From a virus (Duplodnaviria; Heunggongvirae; Uroviricota; Caudoviricetes): 8,229 bases of DNA. The notes below the pieces were generated by a model. It was not told the origin of the DNA. It did no database searches and was given only the letters and a program-made list of their open reading frames with translations. Positions within the stretch are counted from its first letter, which is position 1; the number at the start of each line of letters is the position of its first letter. Positions 1 through 8,229 of the stretch are shown here, one piece after another. Position numbers and translations under genes: made by a program. Location: the IMG/VR virus record IMGVR_UViG_2778261203_000005, positions 1-8,229 of that record. One strand, given 5' to 3'.

Positions 1-1005
1 TTAATCCCCCGTGGACACTGCGTGGACACTTACGCCACCTTTCAGCGGATTAAGGGCCACCGCATCCTGCAGGTAATCCGGTGCAAAATGCGCATATGCC
101 ATTGTTTGCTGAATGGTTGCGTGACCAAGAATCTTCTGAAGCGCAATAATGTTTCCTCCGTTCATCACAAAATGGCTGGCGAACGTATGCCGCAGCACAT
201 GTGCAGCCTGGCCTTTTGGTAAATCGGGCTTAACTCTTTTCAGCGCCAGGCAGAATTCCCGGTACTTCACCTCAAACAAGCCGCCTGTTTCTCTGGTTTT
301 GATCGCCTCACAAACTGCCTGCGAAATTGGCACTGTTCTCTTCCGGCCATTTTTGGTTTCAAGAAACGTTACACGGTTATGAACTATCTGTTCACCACGA
401 AGCTTACAAGCTTCACTCCAGCGCGCCCCTGTGCTTAAACACAAAAGCGCAACACGCCAGTAGTCGCCCTCCAGTGTATCGAGCAATAGCGCCACTTCCT
501 TCTGTGACAGGAACGCCATTTCTCGTGGAGATACATAAAGAATAGAAATTCCCCTTACTGGATGTTCTGCATCCCAAAGACCTATTTTTTTCAGCACGGT
601 AAACATTCCGGATAACCGATTCATGTACCTGTTAGCAGATGACGGTTTCAATCCTTCAGCTATCTTTTGAGAACGCCACGCGATAATTTTCAGCTTATCA
701 AGATCCACAGCCTGCATATCAGCGCCAAGCTCATTGATTATGTTGCGCAGTTGTTTTCGGTCTTCTTCCGCCTTACGCCTGTGCTGGCCGTGATACATCC
801 ACCACAACTCAAGCAAATCATTTAGCGTTCGACGATCACGGTAGCCCTGTATATATTCCCGCTTTTCAGCGTTCGCCATGATGTAGCGTTCAGTGGCCAC
901 CGCTACCGATTTTTTGTCAAATACCTTACGCACGCGCTTTCCCTTGCGTCCGTTCGGCCTGATGTCCAGCAAATAACGACCATCTTCGAGCTTCTTAATA
1001 GACAT
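1..1005 (-). CDS. int: Phage integrase, tyrosine recombinase (P2 Int-like), 334 aa
   Basis: The 339-aa ORF on the minus strand matches P2 integrase from memory (N-terminus SIKKLEDGRY..., C-terminal motifs HVLRHTFASHF and QQTMAYAHFAPDYLQDA..NPL). Catalytic tyrosine-recombinase residues are visible (ARWSEA, H-x-x-R, Y in TMAYAHF). The ORF track starts at a TTG at 1020; the ATG at 1005-1003 is preceded by GGAGGG with 7 nt spacing and gives the P2-like N-terminus, so I place the start there. The stop is at 3-1. Confidence 0.93.
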   Translation of the reverse strand: MSIKKLEDGRYLLDIRPNGRKGKRVRKVFDKKSVAVATERYIMANAEKREYIQGYRDRRTLNDLLELWWMYHGQHRRKAEEDRKQLRNIINELGADMQAVDLDKLKIIAWRSQKIAEGLKPSSANRYMNRLSGMFTVLKKIGLWDAEHPVRGISILYVSPREMAFLSQKEVALLLDTLEGDYWRVALLCLSTGARWSEACKLRGEQIVHNRVTFLETKNGRKRTVPISQAVCEAIKTRETGGLFEVKYREFCLALKRVKPDLPKGQAAHVLRHTFASHFVMNGGNIIALQKILGHATIQQTMAYAHFAPDYLQDAVALNPLKGGVSVHAVSTGD

Positions 1006-1101
1006 TACGAAGCCCTCCAATGAACCGCTCTACAATTTCTCCAGCTTCTTTCCAGCAATAATCAGACCAGACAAAAAGCAGGTCTAACCAGTTTTCTGGC
1101 C

Positions 1102-1422
1102 TCAGCGGGATAATTTTTGGATTGTTTCGGTTGAAACGCGATCTCCCTCCGAATTGCAGGAACCATCAAGAGAGAGAGCCGGAGAAATTTGCCCGACCTC
1201 CGGCATCGTTTCATCTGTTGATAACCAATAAGCATACTTCTTAAATTTAGGGTGTTTCGTAACCTTAAGTAAGGCACCCTCTGTTACTTGCTTCCCCCTC
1301 ACCTCATAGTTAGTTACCGTCCCATAAGGCAGCCCAACACAATCCGCAAACTCCTGGCGGGTCATACCTTCTGCTTCACGAATCAGGCGAAATTTTTCAC
1401 CCATGCTTGACAAAGATGCCAT
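1102..1422 (-). CDS. C: Immunity repressor, P2 C-type, 106 aa
   Basis: The translation MASLSSMGEKFRLIREAEGMTRQEFADCVGLPYGTVTNYE...HPKFKKYAYWLSTDE..PEVGQISPALS resembles P2 C repressor as I remember it (helix-turn-helix plus the QIAPAL-like C-terminus). It lies between int and a divergent cox, as in P2. The start is chosen at the ATG 1422-1420, 9 nt downstream of GGAGGA; the ORF-track start at 1476 would add an unlikely Cys-rich leader. Confidence 0.8.
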   Translation of the reverse strand: MASLSSMGEKFRLIREAEGMTRQEFADCVGLPYGTVTNYEVRGKQVTEGALLKVTKHPKFKKYAYWLSTDETMPEVGQISPALSLDGSCNSEGDRVSTETIQKLSR

Positions 1423-1461
1423 ATCGGGCATATCCTCCATCGAAACATGCCACATCGGGCA
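1407..1461 (+). promoter_or_regulatory. Candidate early promoter Pe (-35 TTGACA 1407-1412, -10 TATCCT 1431-1436) flanked by a 15-bp direct repeat (candidate C operators)
   Basis: A perfect TTGACA sits 18 nt upstream of TATCCT on the + strand, reading toward cox. ATGCCATATCGGGCA (1416-1430) and ATGCCACATCGGGCA (1447-1461) are 14/15 identical direct repeats 31 bp apart, bracketing the -10. P2 C repressor is known to bind direct repeats flanking the Pe -10. No experimental evidence is available here. Confidence 0.5.
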
Positions 1462-1480
1462 CAAACATAAAAACACTCAA

Positions 1481-1510
1481 ATAAGCCGATATAAGCCATT
1501 TTGAGCCATT
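1481..1510. promoter_or_regulatory. Three tandem imperfect 10-bp repeats (ATAAGCCGAT / ATAAGCCATT / TTGAGCCATT) just upstream of the cox RBS; candidate Cox-binding boxes over the Pc region
   Basis: The repeats are directly visible with helical (10 bp) periodicity, lying between the candidate Pe and the cox Shine-Dalgarno (AGGGAG 1521-1526). In P2, Cox represses Pc by binding several direct repeats. The Pc hexamers could not be placed confidently on the minus strand. Confidence 0.35.
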
Positions 1511-1535
1511 CGAACGAATTAGGGAGATTACCACA

Positions 1536-1823
1536 ATGAGCGAATCAGAGCTTGGGGGGTTCATTCAGGTAGCACCATATCCACTTGAAGCGGTGCCATA
1601 TCAACTATTCGCCAAGATGATCGGCCGCAAGGAATCCACAGTCAGAACCATGATTGACGCAGCAAAGCTACCGACAATTGACTTTGTGAAACCAGGTTCA
1701 GTAAAGACGCGTGCATCAGAAAACTGGGTATATCTGCCAGCATTTAACGAAGGCATGCGCAAAGCGTTTTTTGAGCAACCGAAAGAACGCCGCGACGCAT
1801 GGTTGTTGTGGCTGGGACTTTAG
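1536..1823 (+). CDS. cox: Cox-like excisionase / early-lytic regulator, 95 aa
   Basis: The translation ...VPYQLFAKMIGRKESTVRTMIDAAKLPTIDF....ENWVYLPAFNEGMRKAFFEQPKERRDAWLLWLGL aligns with P2 Cox from memory (IPYQEFAKLIG...VRRMID.GKLPVID...EYWVYLPAWN...PKEIRDGWLMWLGL). It has a good SD (AGGGAG, 9 nt spacing) and is divergent from C. Confidence 0.88.
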   Translation: MSESELGGFIQVAPYPLEAVPYQLFAKMIGRKESTVRTMIDAAKLPTIDFVKPGSVKTRASENWVYLPAFNEGMRKAFFEQPKERRDAWLLWLGL

Positions 1824-1829
1824 TCATAA

Positions 1830-2036
1830 ATGACCAGCCATATCATCAGCGCCATTCTGACCCTTGTTTTTATTGAGATAGGCGTAATAGCGATCTATTT
1901 GTTTCGCAAGTTAACGGGACATGAAGAACGCTTTATTGAACTCAGCATTGAATATATCGCCGCTTATACCAAAGGACTTTTCCCGGCAGCTATTGGGGCG
2001 ATGTTTATAGCGTTTGTTATCTGGTTTATCGGGTGA
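1830..2036 (+). CDS. Small hydrophobic protein, 68 aa, two predicted transmembrane helices; function unknown
   Basis: The ORF starts 7 nt after the cox stop. Two hydrophobic stretches are visible (IISAILTLVFIEIGVIAIYLF and LFPAAIGAMFIAFVIWFIG). There is no clear SD. Its position matches the small ORF that follows cox in P2-like phages. Confidence 0.45.
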   Translation: MTSHIISAILTLVFIEIGVIAIYLFRKLTGHEERFIELSIEYIAAYTKGLFPAAIGAMFIAFVIWFIG

Positions 2037-2063
2037 GAAACCTGACAACCCACAACTACTGCA

Positions 2064-2183
2064 ATGAGGGTAATTATGTGTGGCATGGACAAATTGGACC
2101 TTATGTTAATTGTAATACTATCAATTAACTTCGGTTACCTCTTAAGCGGCGCAATTCTCATGTGCGGAGGCAAACGAAAATGA
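2064..2183 (+). CDS. Possible 39-aa membrane peptide (MRVIMCGMDKLDLMLIVILSINFGYLLSGAILMCGGKRK)
   Basis: Found by manual translation; it is not in the ORF track because it is too short. It has a hydrophobic core and a basic C-terminus, and its stop overlaps the next ATG (ATGA). No SD is evident, so it is speculative. Confidence 0.2.
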   Translation: MRVIMCGMDKLDLMLIVILSINFGYLLSGAILMCGGKRK

Positions 2184-2287
2184 ACCAGCAGTCCGCAAAA
2201 CGTGAAAACAATGCGATGCGATTTAATCGCAAATATTTTGAGTTCGGCCTCTATGCCGGAATAATTAAATCTGTACAGAGTCTTTAA
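2180..2287 (+). CDS. Possible 35-aa basic peptide (MNQQSAKRENNAMRFNRKYFEFGLYAGIIKSVQSL)
   Basis: Found by manual translation. Its start overlaps the preceding stop (ATGA) and its stop lies 1 nt before the ATG at 2289. Speculative. Confidence 0.2.
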   Translation: MNQQSAKRENNAMRFNRKYFEFGLYAGIIKSVQSL

Positions 2288-2288
2288 C

Positions 2289-2630
2289 ATGAAACAGCAA
2301 CGTAATTCACGCTTTCGCAATGGTGCAGAACGCCACGCTAACCGTTTTGCTACCAGTGCATCACGCAGCAACATCCGCTACAGCCTGAGTGATACACACG
2401 CAACGCCGGATGGCTACCCAGTAAAACAAATCGGCGAGCATGCCTGGCTGATTGAGAAAGCTGGAATCGTGATCCACAAATGCCCACGCAATCCGTTTAC
2501 CGGAAACCGCATTTTTGCTCTAAGCAGTGGCGACAATCAGTTCGGGCAGGATTTCACATTATACGAAGCACTTCGCACGGTTGATCGTCTGCTTCGCGGG
2601 CAAAGTTTTATTAAACAGGCTGATTTATAA
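2289..2630 (+). CDS. Hypothetical early-operon protein, 113 aa, basic N-terminus
   Basis: A non-overlapping ORF in the same orientation as cox, tightly packed with its neighbours. I do not recognise a family; it may correspond to one of the small P2 early genes (B / orf80-83 region), but this is not verified. Confidence 0.5.
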   Translation: MKQQRNSRFRNGAERHANRFATSASRSNIRYSLSDTHATPDGYPVKQIGEHAWLIEKAGIVIHKCPRNPFTGNRIFALSSGDNQFGQDFTLYEALRTVDRLLRGQSFIKQADL

Positions 2631-2640
2631 CAGGTGCTTT

Positions 2641-2928
2641 ATGACCAAAGACCATGCACAAGGTGTATTTATCCGTTTTATTGATTTTCGCGGTGAACTG
2701 TTATTACGTGCATCCGCTATTGACGGAGTGACTCCGGCGGGTAAAAACGGAGCCGACGAAGCCACTTACGTTTATCTGAACGGCACGCGACTGCTTGTGG
2801 AACTTCCGTACCAGACCGTACGAGAAATCATTAGCGAAGCTGAAAAGGCACGCCAGGTTAATGGCGATGAACCCTATATCGAAATTATTTGTATGGATTC
2901 AGAAGCTGAAATACAGAAAGCAGATTAA
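2641..2928 (+). CDS. Hypothetical early-operon protein, 95 aa (MTKDHAQGVFIRFIDFRGELLLRA...)
   Basis: The ATG at 2641 starts 10 nt after the previous stop. The ORF-track start at 2527 would overlap the upstream gene by about 100 nt in another frame, so I prefer 2641. Family not recognised. Confidence 0.55.
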   Translation: MTKDHAQGVFIRFIDFRGELLLRASAIDGVTPAGKNGADEATYVYLNGTRLLVELPYQTVREIISEAEKARQVNGDEPYIEIICMDSEAEIQKAD

Positions 2929-2939
2929 AGGGCGTTGTG

Positions 2940-3182
2940 ATGGGCAAAGAATATAAAACTCTCATTAACAAAGCACTTGAGCGTTTTTATTTTCGCTTAA
3001 GTGCATCAGGCGCTCATGCTGAACGTGCGGCCCGTGACTCATTGACCAGAGCAATCCGAAGTCTGTATGACGTGGCTTTTTACGCTGATGATCTGGATGC
3101 ACTTAACGAACTTTCCGAGCTGATCTGTGCCGCAGAATGCGGGGAACATATTGAACCGTATAAGTTGGGGAATATCGCATGA
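2940..3182 (+). CDS. Hypothetical early-operon protein, 80 aa
   Basis: The ATG at 2940 is preceded by AAAGGG with 7 nt spacing. The predicted protein is acidic and helical-looking (…AFYADDLDALNELSELICAAECGEH…). Family not recognised. Confidence 0.55.
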   Translation: MGKEYKTLINKALERFYFRLSASGAHAERAARDSLTRAIRSLYDVAFYADDLDALNELSELICAAECGEHIEPYKLGNIA

Positions 3183-3293
3183 GTATATTTATCTCATGGC
3201 TTGTTCTGATTATTTCGGTGGCCTGCGCTATTGGGATTATGCGAATTATTCATTCAATAAAAAAGATTGAACGCTTTTTCACTGGCGAATAAC
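3179..3293 (+). CDS. Possible 37-aa single-pass membrane peptide (MSIFISWLVLIISVACAIGIMRIIHSIKKIERFFTGE)
   Basis: Found by manual translation. The ATG overlaps the upstream stop (ATGA). It has an N-terminal hydrophobic helix and a basic C-terminal tail, an architecture shared with small membrane toxins and holin-like peptides. Confidence 0.35.
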
Positions 3294-3378
3294 AGAGCAA
3301 ATAAAACCACAGATTAAATAAGAAAATGTAAAAACAATCCGCATTCGCGGAGGTATTCGCACACGCCAAGGAGGCGTA

Positions 3379-3582
3379 ATGGCAATTAAGCATTTTCCTG
3401 TCGTTCGTTTTACCTCCAGAGGGCGTGAATACGAAGTCGACGAACGCCTGATTACCACAATCGACAAACACCGTTCAGAAAAGGATGCACATCACATCTA
3501 TCTCACTGACGGCACTTACTTCTGCGCCACGAATGTGGTGCGGGTGAACCTTATCCGACAGGTACAGGAGTCACGCAGATGA
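3379..3582 (+). CDS. Hypothetical protein, 67 aa
   Basis: Strong SD (AAGGAGG 3368-3374) ahead of the ATG at 3379, preceded by an AT-rich, promoter-like 85-bp gap. The stop overlaps the next start (ATGA). Family not recognised; it has one Cys only, so it is not Ogr-like. Confidence 0.6.
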   Translation: MAIKHFPVVRFTSRGREYEVDERLITTIDKHRSEKDAHHIYLTDGTYFCATNVVRVNLIRQVQESRR

Positions 3583-3794
3583 CCATTCTGGACTATATCG
3601 CCGCCAACCCGAACGCAGGTGTGAAACGCGAGATTGCAACCCTTTCCCGCGCCCTGAAAAAAGCCGATTCCGCAGCCGAACCAGAAGACGCCAGCGCACA
3701 GCAGGCGCAGGACGAAAGCAGCAAAAGTAAAAAGACAACGCGGAAGCCTGCAACACGAAAAACCACCGCGACGCAGAAGGCGAAGCGCGGTTAA
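3579..3794 (+). CDS. Hypothetical protein, 71 aa, with Lys/Thr/Ala-rich basic low-complexity C-terminal tail
   Basis: Translationally coupled to the 67-aa ORF. The C-terminus (KSKKTTRKPATRKTTATQKAKRG) looks like a histone-like or nucleic-acid-binding tail. The GC content rises sharply from this ORF onward. Confidence 0.55.
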   Translation: MTILDYIAANPNAGVKREIATLSRALKKADSAAEPEDASAQQAQDESSKSKKTTRKPATRKTTATQKAKRG

Positions 3795-3811
3795 CGACTG
3801 ACCCCGTCAGC

Positions 3812-3882
3812 GGGCGGCGTGCGCGGTGTTCCGGTTTGACTCCGTGACCGTTTACACCGCGCACCCACCGCCCGATTTTTTT
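3812..3882 (+). terminator. Candidate rho-independent terminator: long GC-rich imperfect hairpin followed by a T7 run
   Basis: GTGCGCGGTGT (3819-3829) pairs perfectly with ACACCGCGCAC (3854-3864), extended by GGGCGG (3812-3817) with CCGCCC (3868-3873) across a small internal loop. The 24-nt loop has its own CGGT/ACCG pairing. The stem is followed by GA then TTTTTTT (3876-3882). The large loop is atypical, so it may instead be a regulatory structure. Confidence 0.45.
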
Positions 3883-3965
3883 CAGGAGTGAACCCCATGA
3901 GTATGGTTGCCAGAACTGAACCAGGACCCGCAGAGGACGACATCACCGATAAAGGAGAAGGACGA

Positions 3966-4358
3966 ATGAGCAACACATTTAAATTCAGCAGCCGAAGCGA
4001 AAATAATTTGCAGGGCGTAAATCCTGATCTGGTGAAAGTGACCCGACGGGCACTGGAAATCTCGGAAGTGGATTTTGGTATCACCGAAGGGTTGCGCAGC
4101 CGTTACCGCCAGAAGCAACTTGTGGCCACAGGTAAGAGCCAGACCATGAACAGCCGCCACCTTACGGGGCATGCCGTGGATGTTGTGGCTTATATCGGCA
4201 GCCAGGTGTCATGGGAATGGCCGCTGTACGAAAAAATCGCAGCAGCATTCAGACAGGCCAGCCGGGAACTGAATATTCCGGTGGAATGGGGCGGCGACTG
4301 GAAGACCCTGAAAGACGGACCGCATTTTCAGTTACCACACGGAGCCTATCCGGCATGA
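3966..4358 (+). CDS. Endolysin, peptidase M15 family (L-alanyl-D-glutamate peptidase, T5 Lys-like), 130 aa
   Basis: Zn-binding motifs of VanY/M15 peptidases are visible (SRHLTGHAVDVV and GGDW....GPHFQL). From the ATG at 3966 the protein aligns with phage T5 endolysin as I remember it (MS.FKF........VKPELQKVARRALEL..DF vs MSNTFKF...VNPDLVKVTRRALEISEVDF). SD AGGAGAAGG 4 nt upstream. An alternative upstream ATG at 3897 (SD CAGGAG) would add a 23-aa acidic extension. Confidence 0.9.
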   Translation: MSNTFKFSSRSENNLQGVNPDLVKVTRRALEISEVDFGITEGLRSRYRQKQLVATGKSQTMNSRHLTGHAVDVVAYIGSQVSWEWPLYEKIAAAFRQASRELNIPVEWGGDWKTLKDGPHFQLPHGAYPA

Positions 4359-4762
4359 AGCTCTGGCCCACGCTGGGTGTCGCTTTCCTTCTGATTGCCG
4401 GATGGGGAACATCCATGCGTCTGTCGTGGTCGCTGGGCCGGGAGAACGCCAGAAACGAAGCGCAGGCCAGCACCCTGAAAAGTACCGCCGACACCCTGAA
4501 TATCATCAGCGCCGGGGTACAGGATATGCAGCAGGTGCTGGCGCAACTCCGCGTGGAAAATCAGCAACGCAATCAGGACGGAGAGGTAAGACGTGAACAG
4601 CTACGCAACGATATTGCAAAAGATGAATGCGCCCACGCTTTGCCTGACGCTCGTTTTACTGACAGGCTGCGCAGGCACGCAGAACGCGCCACTGCCAGCG
4701 CCGTCAGTCCGGCTTATACCGCAGACGCTGACCATACCGGTAACGCCTCCCCCCTTCCCTGA
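4355..4762 (+). CDS. Rz-like inner-membrane spanin (i-spanin), 135 aa
   Basis: The ATG overlaps the endolysin stop (ATGA). It has an N-terminal transmembrane segment (LWPTLGVAFLLIAGWG) followed by a charged, coiled-coil-like periplasmic region (QDMQQVLAQLRVENQQRNQDGEVRREQLRNDIAKDE). Its position and architecture match P2 lysB and lambda Rz. Confidence 0.78.
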   Translation: MKLWPTLGVAFLLIAGWGTSMRLSWSLGRENARNEAQASTLKSTADTLNIISAGVQDMQQVLAQLRVENQQRNQDGEVRREQLRNDIAKDECAHALPDARFTDRLRRHAERATASAVSPAYTADADHTGNASPLP

Positions 4763-4913
4763 CACTCCCACATGGGGAAATCTCGGTATATGGGGCGACC
4801 GCCTTCTGGATGCACTGGAAACCTGTAACGCGGATAAACGGGCCATTGAATTACTGGAACAGCGCAGGCTGCAACGACTGAACAACGAGGATAACAACCA
4901 TGCTGAAAACTGA
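4623..4913 (+). CDS. Rz1-like outer-membrane lipoprotein spanin (o-spanin), 96 aa
   Basis: The start lies inside the Rz gene in a different frame. It has a signal peptide with lipobox LLTGC and a proline-rich mature region (PLPAPSVRLIPQTLTIPVTPPPFPDTP) typical of Rz1 and P2 lysC. It extends past the Rz stop and overlaps the start of R. Confidence 0.72.
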   Translation: MNAPTLCLTLVLLTGCAGTQNAPLPAPSVRLIPQTLTIPVTPPPFPDTPTWGNLGIWGDRLLDALETCNADKRAIELLEQRRLQRLNNEDNNHAEN

Positions 4914-5367
4914 TTCCCTGCGTGAAGCCATGACCCGTTCATGCCGATGGTGTCAGGCCAACCCGGAAAAATTCACCATTTTCGTGGAGAGCGGCAACAT
5001 TGAAACGACAGGAGAAACCCCATCGTTTGTTTACCGCTATCAGATGGTGATGTTTGTCATGGATTACGCCGGGGAGCTGGACGACCTCACGCTGCCGCTG
5101 CTGGCGTGGTTATCCGAAAATCAGCCACAGTTGTTGCTCAACCCTGAGCGTAATCAGGACATCAAATTCTCCGCCGTTATCAATGACGATGACAGCGCCG
5201 ATCTCCTGTTTACGCTCCCCCTGCGGGAACGCGTTCGCATCACGCGCAGCAGTCAGGGCACACCGCAGGCAGAACACCTGCCGGAGCCAAAACCCCGCCT
5301 GCCCTCTTCCGAAGGCGACTGGTCGCATGTATTCCAGGATGTGACGTGGGGTGAAAGCGATGGATAA
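4900..5367 (+). CDS. R: Tail completion protein R (P2 gpR-like), 155 aa
   Basis: The N-terminus MLKTDSLREAMT and internal LPLLAWLSENQPQLL match P2 gpR from memory (MLKPDSLRRAL..., VPVLAWLRENQPD). Same length as P2 gpR (155 aa). SD GAGGA 9 nt upstream. Confidence 0.88.
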   Translation: MLKTDSLREAMTRSCRWCQANPEKFTIFVESGNIETTGETPSFVYRYQMVMFVMDYAGELDDLTLPLLAWLSENQPQLLLNPERNQDIKFSAVINDDDSADLLFTLPLRERVRITRSSQGTPQAEHLPEPKPRLPSSEGDWSHVFQDVTWGESDG

Positions 5368-5995
5368 GGCATTCACCCGCGTGGATGAAACCTTTGAGGC
5401 CATCCGCGACAGCCTGAATCAGCAGGCCATCAATAACATCGCCAGAAAGCTGGCACAGGATTTACGCCGCGCCCAGCAGGCGCGTATCCGGTCACAGAAA
5501 GCGCCGGACGGGACCGCGTGGACACCACGCAGACGCCGCGTAACCCGGATACAGGAACGCATTCGCTTTATCTGGAATAACGAAGCACGCACGCTGAAAA
5601 ACTGGCATCACGACACGGGGAAATACGGGCGAACCATCACCGGGTGGGATGAGGATAAAAACAATATCCGTACGTTTTACCGGGATGACATCGACCGTTT
5701 TCTGGAAATACGCACCCGGCGCATCAACCAGGACAGCACAAAGCGCGTCCCCATGTTCGTAAAACTGCGCACCGCCCGCTACCTGAAAGCCCGTGCAGAT
5801 GCTTCCGGTGTGACGGTGGGTTACAGCGGCGTGGCCGCACGTATTGCACGCGTTCATCAGTTCGGTGAGCGCGATCAGGTTGCGCCGGGCATTTTCACCG
5901 ATTACCCGGTACGTGAGCTGCTGGGTATCAGCCAGGCAGATGAGCGCCTGATTTATAACACGGTGCTGGGCCGGATTGCGGAGGCTGTACGGTGA
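5360..5995 (+). CDS. S: Tail completion / virion morphogenesis protein S (P2 gpS-like), 211 aa
   Basis: The N-terminal region (IARKLAQDLRRAQQARIRSQKAPDGTAWTPRRRR) and C-terminal region (AARIARVHQFGERDQVA....TDYPVRELLGIS) match the gpS family from memory. The ATG at 5360 overlaps the R stop; the ORF-track start is a GTG at 5351. It is about 60 aa longer than I recall for P2 gpS. Confidence 0.85.
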   Translation: MDKAFTRVDETFEAIRDSLNQQAINNIARKLAQDLRRAQQARIRSQKAPDGTAWTPRRRRVTRIQERIRFIWNNEARTLKNWHHDTGKYGRTITGWDEDKNNIRTFYRDDIDRFLEIRTRRINQDSTKRVPMFVKLRTARYLKARADASGVTVGYSGVAARIARVHQFGERDQVAPGIFTDYPVRELLGISQADERLIYNTVLGRIAEAVR

Positions 5996-6573
5996 GCGCA
6001 GAACTCATGCGACTGCTGAGCAATATCATCCGTACCGGGATCATCTCTGAAGTTGATGAGAAGTCCTGGCGCGTGCGCGTTCGCAGCGGCGGACTGGAAA
6101 CAGGCTGGCTGCGCTGGAACACCACGCGCGCGGGAGCCTTCAATGTGTGGCTGCCGCCATCACCCGGCGAACAGGTGGTAATTGCCTGCATTGGCGGCAA
6201 CCCGGAAACCGCCATGATAATTGGCAGCCTGTGGAGTGATGCCAGTCCGGCCCCCGGCAAAAGCCTGAAAGAAATCGTGGTCAGCGCGCCGGACGGCGCG
6301 GTGTTCCGCTACGACGCGGACGCAGGCGCGCTGAGCGCCAGCGGCATGAAAACAGCCAGCCTGCAGGCATCCGTCAGCGTGACACTGGACGCGCCCGTCG
6401 TGGAATGCACAGACCTTCTGAGAACAGCGACGCTTGACGTCACAAAAGGGGGAAAGATGAGCGGCAATATCACGCACAGCGGCGGCGATTTCACCTCAAA
6501 CGGCATCACAGTGCATACGCATAAACACGGTGGCGTGAAAGGCGGCAGTGATTCGACAGGAGGCCCGCAGTGA
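5992..6573 (+). CDS. V: Baseplate assembly protein V (spike), P2 gpV-like, 193 aa
   Basis: Motifs IRTGIISEVD, GWLRW, GEQVVIACIGG, PDGAVFRYD, SGMKTAS, GNITHSGG.TSNGITVHTHKH match P2 gpV from memory. GTG start overlapping the S stop (GTGA), with GGAGG 6 nt upstream. Confidence 0.9.
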   Translation: MSAELMRLLSNIIRTGIISEVDEKSWRVRVRSGGLETGWLRWNTTRAGAFNVWLPPSPGEQVVIACIGGNPETAMIIGSLWSDASPAPGKSLKEIVVSAPDGAVFRYDADAGALSASGMKTASLQASVSVTLDAPVVECTDLLRTATLDVTKGGKMSGNITHSGGDFTSNGITVHTHKHGGVKGGSDSTGGPQ

Positions 6574-6920
6574 CAACCCGCTACACAGGAATGAATCCGG
6601 ACGGGACGGGAAACCTGAACGATACGGAGCACCTGAAACAGTCAGTCAGGGACATCCTGACCACCCCGCTGGCAAGCCGGGTTATGCGACGGGAATATGG
6701 CAGCCTTGTGCCTGATTTGATTGACGAACCCATGAATAACACCACGCGTCTGCAATGCATGAGTGCTGCCGTGATTGCACTGACGCGATGGGAACCCCGC
6801 ATTGCCCTGGACGCTATCGACGTTGTCTGGAAAGCGGGAGGCCGCGCCGGGGTGACGCTGTCGGGTACAGTCATGCAGACCATGCAGAATGTTGAATTAA
6901 CCATCACACTGAGGGAGTAA
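6570..6920 (+). CDS. W: Baseplate wedge protein W (GPW/gp25 family), 116 aa
   Basis: MTTRYTGMN...SRVMRREYGSL...WEPRIAL...VTLSGT matches P2 gpW from memory (MTARYLGMN...SRVMRRDYGSL...WEPRVTL). GTG start overlapping the V stop, with GGAGG 6 nt upstream. Confidence 0.9.
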   Translation: MTTRYTGMNPDGTGNLNDTEHLKQSVRDILTTPLASRVMRREYGSLVPDLIDEPMNNTTRLQCMSAAVIALTRWEPRIALDAIDVVWKAGGRAGVTLSGTVMQTMQNVELTITLRE

Positions 6921-6923
6921 ATC

Positions 6924-7820
6924 ATGCCTGCCGTTGACCTTTCCCAGTTACCAGAACCCGCCATCATCGCGGAGCCTGATTTTGAGGCAATTCTGGCTGA
7001 CACAAAGGCCATGATGATTGCAGCTTATCCCGCCGAACAGCGTGAAGTCGTTTCCGCCGCGCTGGAGCTGGAATCGGAACCCCTGAACGTTATCGCCCAG
7101 ACAACAGCGTTTCGTGAAATGCTGTTACGCCAGCGGGTCAATGAGGGTGCACGCGCCTGCATGTTAAGCCACAGCGCCGGAACAGACCTGGACAACCTCG
7201 CGGGCAATATGAACACAAAGCGCCTGGTTATCACTCCGGCAACGGATACCACCGACGCGGTGATGGAGAGCGACACCTCGCTGAGACTGCGGGCGCAGCG
7301 GGCGTACGACGGCCTGAGTGTTGCTGGCCCGTCAGGTGCATACGAGTATTTTGCCCGCAGCGCCAGCGGTCTGGTGCGTGATGCGCGGGCTATCAGTCCG
7401 TCTCCGGCAAATGTGACGGTTTCCATCCTGTCTACTGAAGGCGACGGCACAGCAACGGAGGCGTTGCTTAATACCGTTCGCGCCGTTCTGAATGCAGAGG
7501 ATACCCGCCCGGTGGCCGACCGCCTGACCGTACAGAGTGCCAGAATCGTGACATGGCGGCTGAATGCAAAACTGTACTTTTACCCCGGCCCGGAATCCGA
7601 ACCTATTCTGGCCGCGGCGGAATCGTCGTTCAGGAAGTGGCTGGCTGAGCAGGGGCTTATCGGTCAGGACGTGGCGTTGTCCGCCATTGCTGCCGCACTG
7701 CATGTACACGGTGTGCAACGCGTGGAGATAATCGAACCCACACAGAATATGGCCATCAGCGACATACAGGCGGCGCGCTGTGAGTCATTTACCATCAGCG
7801 AAGGTGGGCGCAATGAGTAA
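6924..7820 (+). CDS. J: Baseplate assembly protein J, P2 gpJ-like, 298 aa
   Basis: Extensive similarity to P2 gpJ from memory (LESEPL, RQRVNE.ARA.ML, AVMESDT..RLR.Q.A..GLSVAG..GAY.Y..RSA, RPVADRLTVQSA, YPGPESEPI.AAA, LSAI.AALHV.GVQRVE). SD GAGGGAG. Confidence 0.92.
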   Translation: MPAVDLSQLPEPAIIAEPDFEAILADTKAMMIAAYPAEQREVVSAALELESEPLNVIAQTTAFREMLLRQRVNEGARACMLSHSAGTDLDNLAGNMNTKRLVITPATDTTDAVMESDTSLRLRAQRAYDGLSVAGPSGAYEYFARSASGLVRDARAISPSPANVTVSILSTEGDGTATEALLNTVRAVLNAEDTRPVADRLTVQSARIVTWRLNAKLYFYPGPESEPILAAAESSFRKWLAEQGLIGQDVALSAIAAALHVHGVQRVEIIEPTQNMAISDIQAARCESFTISEGGRNE

Positions 7821-8229
7821 TTCACTGTTACCGCCATCAGCCAGCAGTTTCATGCGTTGTGCCGAAGCCGTCGGAACGCGCATTACAGACATTCCGGTAG
7901 ACCTCAACACGCTGTGGTCGCCGGACACATGCCCGGTGCATCTGCTGCCTTATCTCGCCTGGGCATTTTCCGTTGACCGCTGGGACCGCAACTGGCCGGA
8001 GGAAACAAAGCGCCAGGTGATTCGCGATGCGTGGCTGATACACCGACACAAGGGGACCATCAGCGCACTGCGAAGAGCCGTGGAGCCTCTCGGCTACCTG
8101 ATTGAAGTAAAGGAGTGGTGGCAACTCAACGAGGAGCCGGGAACATTTCGCATTGTTGTCGGAGTACTTGATCAGGGCATCCCCATAATGCCAATGGTGC
8201 GTGGATACGCTGGTCAGATGGTGCAATAG
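7813..8229 (+). CDS. I: Baseplate protein I, P2 gpI-like, 138 aa as read (ends exactly at window edge)
   Basis: The core LW.PDTCP..LLP.LAWAFSVDRWD..WPE.TKR.VIRDA..IH.HKGTI.A.RR.VEPLGYLI.V.EWW......PGTFR...GVL matches P2 gpI from memory. The ATG at 7813 overlaps the J stop (ATGAGTAA). The product is shorter than my recollection of P2 gpI (about 176 aa); the stop TAG sits at 8227-8229, the last bases of the window. Confidence 0.85.
   Translation: MSNSLLPPSASSFMRCAEAVGTRITDIPVDLNTLWSPDTCPVHLLPYLAWAFSVDRWDRNWPEETKRQVIRDAWLIHRHKGTISALRRAVEPLGYLIEVKEWWQLNEEPGTFRIVVGVLDQGIPIMPMVRGYAGQMVQ

Follow-up and report, generated by a model that had tools for sequence, protein, structure and literature searches.

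The window (the whole 8,229-nucleotide stretch of viral DNA that was analysed) is very probably the left part of a defective P88-like prophage (Xuanwuvirus, P2 family) lying beside pdxB in E. coli, with a GC step that is native to phages of this kind and a gene content reduced by deletion. Genes essential for lytic growth have been lost or disrupted by three deletions, here called J1, J2 and J3 and resolved at the nucleotide level.

Chromosomal setting and gene content

The window lies at the end of contig NMNN01000016.1 of a draft short-read assembly (GCA_002468085.1). A gap of 158 nt separates its integrase gene from host pdxB, beyond which come usg, truA, dedA, accD and folC, and this host flank is 98.5–98.7% identical to E. 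coli chromosomes. The pdxB–flk site of E. coli CH4804 holds an intact prophage of the same P88-like type; int thus adjoins host genes at an attachment site that the CH4804 prophage also uses. By BLAST, positions 1–3611 are 99.7% identical to 27072–30681 of P88_4B11 (NC_049391.1, a 37.1-kb genome), while 3606–8148 align to 5924–6269 and 7218–11414 of the same genome at 97.2–97.7% identity. The late region is 96.9–97.7% identical to P88, 500465-2, 503458 and 520873, and nucleotide identity across the shared regions places the element in Xuanwuvirus. Pfam domains together with P2/P88 annotation gave the following map, in which both a P2-type regulatory region (int with divergent C and cox) and the P2-type late order (lysis, R, S, V, W, J, I) are found:

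1..1005, minus strand: tyrosine integrase (int), 334 aa; Pfam Int_N and Phage_integrase; 100% amino acid identity to P88_4B11; GC 0.486, GC3 0.499
1102..1422, minus strand: P2 C-type immunity repressor (C), helix-turn-helix, 106 aa; called gene, annotated in CH4804/P88_4B11 as helix-turn-helix/transcriptional regulator; GC 0.467
1536..1823, plus strand: cox, excisionase and Pc repressor, first gene of the early operon; Pfam Phage_Cox; GC 0.490
1830..3582, plus strand: small early ORFs, also in intact relatives; called genes and Pfam; GC 0.35–0.49 per gene
within 1830..3582, plus strand: orf68 and two 35-aa ORFs (2076–2287); called genes
2289–2630, 2641–2928 and 2940–3182, plus strand: DUF4761, orf95 and DUF4754, respectively; called genes and Pfam
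3179–3292 and 3379–3582, plus strand: orf37 and orf67, respectively; called genes
3579..3794, plus strand: MarR–gpM in-frame fusion ORF, 71 aa; translations compared
3811..3882, plus strand: terminator-like hairpin between M and L; fold energy
3897..4358, plus strand: L'–endolysin fusion ORF, 153 aa; Pfam Peptidase_M15_4; translations compared
4355–4762, plus strand: lysB, spanin-like (DUF2570); Pfam and F2_407_2_2 annotation
4716–4913, plus strand: lysC; Pfam LysC and F2_407_2_2 annotation
4900–5367 and 5351–5995, plus strand: R and S, respectively; Pfam P2_Phage_GpR and Phage_tail_S
5992–6573, 6570–6920 and 6924–7820, plus strand: V, W and J, respectively; Pfam Phage_base_V, GPW_gp25 and Baseplate_J
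7813..8229, plus strand: tail gene I', shortened from 202 to 138 aa, continuing out of frame into what is left of tail-fibre gene H

The most AT-rich stretch, 2041–2300 (40% GC), contains the two 35-aa ORFs in tandem (2076–2183 and 2180–2287); gene calls for both exist in the source contig and in P88_4B11, and neither has a family assignment. The M–L spacer is native, and its hairpin, which is followed by seven U, sits between the gpM'-fused early operon and the lysis/tail genes. Its predicted folding energy is −49.1 kcal/mol (z = −4.98; 0 of 200 shuffles as stable). A simple terminator scan missed this hairpin because the loop is too long; folding revealed it. The tail and baseplate genes (4900..7820) have a GC content of 0.55–0.61 and a GC3 of 0.64–0.70, and are 100% identical to the prophages of F2_407_2_2. 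Within tail gene S, 271 nt (5610–5880) match an unannotated stretch of Aeromonas phage AP1 (MT713136.1, a 254-kb record) at 98.5%, which looks like contamination or a mis-join in the AP1 record.

A complete, viable P88-like genome is not present: genes A, Q, P, O, N, M, L, X and holin all belong to the segments lost at J1 and J2. The element is the remnant of a Xuanwuvirus member and not a functional member.

The GC step in the window and in intact relatives

Across the whole window, GC content is 46.4% at positions 1–3605 versus 57.8% at 3606–8229. A maximum-likelihood scan for a single change point placed the best one after base 3523, with a log-likelihood ratio (LLR) of 55.0; 200 shuffles in 30-nt blocks averaged 3.6 and never exceeded 11.9. 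In 300-nt sliding windows GC ranged from 0.40 to 0.52 on the left and from 0.51 to 0.66 on the right. The abrupt shift from AT-rich to GC-rich sequence that had been noticed by eye in an earlier note is therefore real: the LLR is far above the shuffle null, the sliding windows contain the step near 3.6 kb that the claim entails, and the sample stretches named at the time measure 40.4% GC (2041–2300), 41.2% (3294–3378) and 68.3% (6301–6360). Pooled GC3 is 0.462 in the left-arm genes and 0.641 in the right-arm genes, respectively below and above the 0.567 of the six flanking host genes. To describe third positions on the right as dominated by G/C somewhat overstates a difference in the direction described.

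3411..3613, no strand: support interval of the GC change point (positions at most 2 lnL units from the best)

The stretch 3579–3800 has 56.8% GC and falls within the GC-rich side, the transition lying inside orf67 and the first codons of the ORF that follows. The break had been assigned to the junction of two translationally coupled ORFs; the ATGA overlap is indeed present at 3579–3582, but the transition is inside orf67 and the coupling is the native arrangement of orf67 and marR. The native GC boundary lies about 85 nt upstream of joint J1.

The region from int through gene A was scanned for a change point in four intact relatives with different int/C/cox modules:

P88_4B11: change point 30593, marR start 30649
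CH4804: change point 9904, marR start 9960 (locus coordinates)
F2_407_2_2: change point 2890, marR start 2948 (locus coordinates)
P88: change point 3090 (support 3077–3351), marR start 3331

In P88_4B11, CH4804 and F2_407_2_2 the change point preceded the marR start by no more than about 60 nt; in P88 it did so by about 240 nt, and its support interval covers the marR start. GC was 0.44–0.46 to the left and 0.55–0.56 to the right in all four, and when P88_4B11 was rotated to the start of int its change point fell after base 3522 (support 3330–3630), essentially as in the window. In APEC E956 another gene replaces marR, yet the contrast is there (0.470 versus 0.555). Among metagenome and viral contigs with 2.5 kb on each side of the marR ATG, upstream GC was lower than downstream GC in 43 of 43 (means 0.456 and 0.534). 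In P2 (NC_001895), int–cox has a GC content of 0.444 versus 0.53–0.57 in the late operons.

Because the same boundary occurs in five intact relatives with differing int–C–cox modules and in all 43 contigs, the GC step at orf67/marR is native to P88-like phages and marks a compositional boundary, of a kind already known for P2-family genomes. To its left is a lysogeny and early block of roughly 3.5 kb (int, C, cox and the small early ORFs as far as orf67) with about 46% GC; the genes from marR on, for replication, head, lysis and tail, have about 54–58%. The change point shared with intact relatives ruled out an origin of the step as a by-product of deletion. A foreign-host origin of either arm was rejected because intact members of the genus have the step along with both arms. 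Nor does the AT-rich block behave as a horizontally acquired island or moron, being found at the same place in all relatives examined; it is a conserved lysogeny/early module, not an insertion. We infer the reason for its AT-richness, to which dense protein-binding and promoter sites, short weakly expressed genes and P2-family-wide module exchange are plausible contributors. An ancient difference in origin or selection between the two blocks is possible, since late GC3 (0.64) lies above and early GC3 (0.46) below that of the host (0.57). For the reading of prophage sequences in general, a sharp GC step need not mean foreign origin, as the lysogeny/early block of P2 and P88 is natively AT-rich.

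At the level of strains, the arms do differ in their closest relatives. For the left arm this is the CH4804 prophage, with 99.92% identity, although its late region reaches only 96.9–97.7%. For the right arm it is the two F2_407_2_2 prophages, which both match it at 100.000% over 4,576 nt but have left arms that are either 87–97% identical to the window or absent/unrelated. A genus-wide sliding comparison gave a patchwork of identity in which the AT-rich block is the most variable part (absent to 99%) and the late region is 95–99% identical. This patchy conservation of the left arm, and the presence of its int module in only 5 phage records versus 13 for the gpJ type, would be in keeping with the suggestion of the earlier note that the arms derive from different lineages or hosts, taken here to mean a recent chimeric fusion of phages marked by the GC step. 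We consider such an origin very improbable and already largely refuted. All intact relatives examined have the step at this boundary, irrespective of their int–C–cox module; P2 has the same contrast; and both arms co-occur in intact P88_4B11 (99.7% and 97.6%) and in PhiR44_2. The nearest relatives of Int outside the genus are those of fiAA91-ss and Wphi (53% amino acid identity), with int DNA also matching phiT5282H (70%), and the nearest of gpJ are those of Enterobacter phiT5282H (69%), Klebsiella 3LV2017 (61%) and then the P2 group (54%). All of these belong to the P2 family and infect Enterobacteriaceae, which gives no indication of a different host. What stands of the suggestion is that the closest relatives differ and that non-contiguous DNA is joined at 3606–3611, 27–32 nt past the ATGA overlap; what falls is the difference of lineage or host, the arms belonging to one genus and one host species.

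The differing relatives reflect known within-genus mosaicism, already documented for the P2 family: the regulatory region of P2-like phages varies extensively and has recombined with the structural genes (Nilsson et al. 2011, PMC3448106). Mosaicism does not explain the GC step, because the step is present whichever regulatory module is attached.

Deletion joints and the defective state

Comparison with intact relatives defined three joints:

J1, 3606..3611, no strand: marR joined to gpM; BLAST against P88_4B11, CH4804 and F2_407_2_2, and three-way sequence comparison
J2, 3951..3952, no strand: 948 bp lost; comparison with relatives, translations
J3, 8182..8185, no strand: about 1.32 kb lost, comprising the 3' part of I and most of H

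J1 joins marR codon 10 (28–33 nt into the gene) to codon ~204 of gpM, the terminase small subunit. The marR partner reads GCCGCCAA followed by TCCGGGG, the gpM partner CACCTGAA followed by CCCGAACGC, and the window GCCGCCAA followed by CCCGAACGC. Every one of the 71 intact marR alleles recovered from metagenome and viral contigs has AATCC here. The C at 3608 therefore derives from gpM, which puts the crossover immediately after AA (3606–3607). A natural AACCC polymorphism in marR, which would have lengthened the microhomology, was not found among these 71 alleles; the listed complete genomes likewise all differ from AACCC at that base, except E. coli IAL7250. A scan of species-representative genomes with a marR 32-mer found nothing. 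The loss at J1 amounts to about 12.3 kb (12,285 bp relative to CH4804) and comprises marR, two or three small genes, replication endonuclease A, parM/parR, portal Q, terminase P, scaffold O, capsid N and most of M. The reading frame is preserved across the join, so that the ORF at 3579–3794 consists of the first 10 aa of the MarR-like protein and the last 61 aa of gpM; this exact 71-aa fusion protein was found only in the NCBI assembly and in a Logan assembly.

J2 took out the part of head-completion gene L that follows codon 18, together with tail gene X and holin, and shows no microhomology. It too is in frame: L' is fused to the M15 endolysin, which keeps its own Shine–Dalgarno sequence and ATG at 3966. 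At J3, up to 4 nt (CCCA) match neither flank. This third joint occurs in the NCBI assembly only, near the contig end (~190–337 nt), and because of the single assembly and the nearness to the contig end it is less secure than J1 and J2.

J1 and J2 are taken as real because their fusion proteins are present in both the NCBI and Logan assemblies and because overlaps of 6 nt and 0 nt are too short for k-mer mis-joins. Assembler chimeras among related prophages would be one way to produce such junctions, and the source contig comes from a draft short-read assembly and ends soon after J3, a joint seen in one assembly; even so, this account is scarcely credible. The Logan assembly carries the J1 and J2 fusions, the IAL7250 genome, which is complete, has a joint of a similar kind, and with overlaps of 6 nt, 0 nt and a few unmatched nt the three junctions offer no shared k-mers for mis-joins in the assembly graph. 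No J1-spanning locus occurs in 5,426 complete E. coli genomes, so the scar is private to one isolate, and it is recent.

The different relatives of the two arms mean that J1 could in principle join two co-resident prophages, by illegitimate recombination or rearrangement between a CH4804-like one at pdxB and an F2_407_2_2-like one elsewhere. The identities of 99.92% to CH4804 on the left and 100% to F2_407_2_2 on the right agree with this proposal, and polylysogeny exists, F2_407_2_2 having two P88-like prophages with identical late regions and an IS26-mediated rearrangement. It is improbable, however: the genus patchwork shows that homologous exchange is common, so a single mosaic parent is equally consistent, and gene order and orientation across J1 are exactly those that a simple internal deletion gives.

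Three specific agents were considered for the joint. IS26 came into question since the copy in F2_407_2_2 lies 5–10 bp away, but it was ruled out: IS sequence is absent from the window joint, and 7 nt of marR past the IS26 target site are still kept. Nicking by the rolling-circle Rep protein (gpA) was rejected as a source of a recurrent breakpoint at this position, as the P2 ori nick sequence is unlike the joint. With the cores of DNA-invertase hix/cix-type sites, the joint has only CCAA in common.

We favour a history of simple internal deletions. An illegitimate, microhomology-level deletion of about 12.3 kb started 28 nt inside marR and ended near the 3' end of gpM; it is because of this J1 deletion that the lysis/tail genes now abut the early region. 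The GC-rich sequence that had followed the boundary, from marR to the replication genes, thereby gave way to sequence that is GC-rich as well, gpM' with the lysis and tail genes, and the native boundary stayed untouched; GC is 0.544–0.558 from marR to the replication gene in P88_4B11 and CH4804 and 0.578 over gpM', lysis and tail in the window. Two further deletions took L, X and holin in one case and parts of I and H in the other. The order of the deletions and their selective cause are likewise matters that we infer.

What is kept comprises int, C, cox, the small early genes, endolysin, lysB/lysC, R, S, V, W and J, and what is missing comprises replication, partition, packaging and capsid genes, L, X, holin and intact I and H. 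The absence of replication, packaging and capsid genes, holin, X and intact I/H makes this a defective prophage, and the remnant would be unable to replicate, package DNA, complete a tail, trigger lysis or make virions. An R-type tailocin was also considered. Head and replication genes are absent, but X and holin are deleted and I and H are truncated, which rules it out; a complete tail/baseplate with a lysis cassette is not found in the window, and the contig stops before the sheath/tube region. For annotation, the ORFs at 3579–3794 and 3897–4358 should be treated as artefacts of deletion fusion, and the appropriate label for the element is defective prophage remnant, not phage or tailocin.

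The marR breakpoint and comparison with known prophages

The 5' end of marR is also broken in other genomes. In E. coli IAL7250 (NZ_CM130729.1), a large deletion has its left crossover after the same AA (marR codons 9–10) as the window. Its joint lies at ~9596–9600 of its locus, the window equivalents being 3606–3607 and 6727, and its right breakpoint is inside gpW, where GAA is followed by CCCATG, versus GAA followed by CCCGAA in the window. This is the only AACCC allele among the 5,426 complete genomes. The IAL7250 prophage occupies the ppa locus, has P88-type int/C/cox and is ~5% diverged from the window over the aligned arms. Over the 297 nt left of the joint, window and IAL7250 are identical, and a common SNP separates both from CH4804, which makes it possible that the IAL7250 deletion is nested, derived from a shared J1 allele. 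In F2_407_2_2 (NZ_CP074756.1), IS26 is inserted in marR 5–10 bp upstream of the J1 position, with the target duplication CTACATCG. The pdxB prophage copy in this genome has an IS26-flanked inversion at ~470 and ~21700 of its locus. Several genomes lose homology exactly at the marR ATG and have another gene there (for example APEC E956, 9573–9900 of the locus), and this population-level mosaic boundary coincides with the GC step, ~35 nt upstream of the crossover point.

These cases raise the idea that the marR 5' end, at the AT-to-GC boundary, is a recurrent rearrangement hot spot in P88-like prophages. We hold this to be doubtful, and the recurrence may be coincidence. If true, it would point either to site-preferring breakage or repair, or to selection removing everything downstream of the lysogeny module. 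The recurrent breakpoint is thus a small lead for studies of prophage decay.

Outside the window, the intact relatives differ in the AT-rich cargo carried between gene D/ogr and the attachment site. In F2_407_2_2 the cargo encodes TIR and SIR2 proteins (31597–33512 of the locus), and in CH4804 a RES-domain protein and a TagO-like protein (40501–43072 of the locus); these regions look like defence/cargo hot spots.

Among named systems, the P88_4B11/P88 relatives (Xuanwuvirus, Peduoviridae) share with the window the gene content and order of both arms as well as the orf67/marR step. P88_4B11 itself is a complete phage, whereas the window is without ~12.3 kb, 948 bp and ~1.3 kb (I/H) of such a genome. 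P2 has the same contrast between an AT-rich int–C–cox region (44%) and late operons (53–57%), but it has its own early genes (B, orf80–83) and a less sharp step (LLR 21, versus 38–46). Int and gpJ of the P2 group, fiAA91-ss and Wphi being nearest, have only ~53–54% protein identity to those of the window.

As a case of prophage decay, the IAL7250 prophage shares with the window the left crossover nucleotide and the partner in which GAA meets CCC, but it differs in locus, int/C/cox type and right breakpoint. The cryptic prophages of E. coli show the same loss of replication, packaging and lysis-trigger genes together with retention of int, repressor and some structural genes. The decay seen in the window differs from theirs in being very recent, as the retained DNA is 99.9–100% identical to that of intact prophages.
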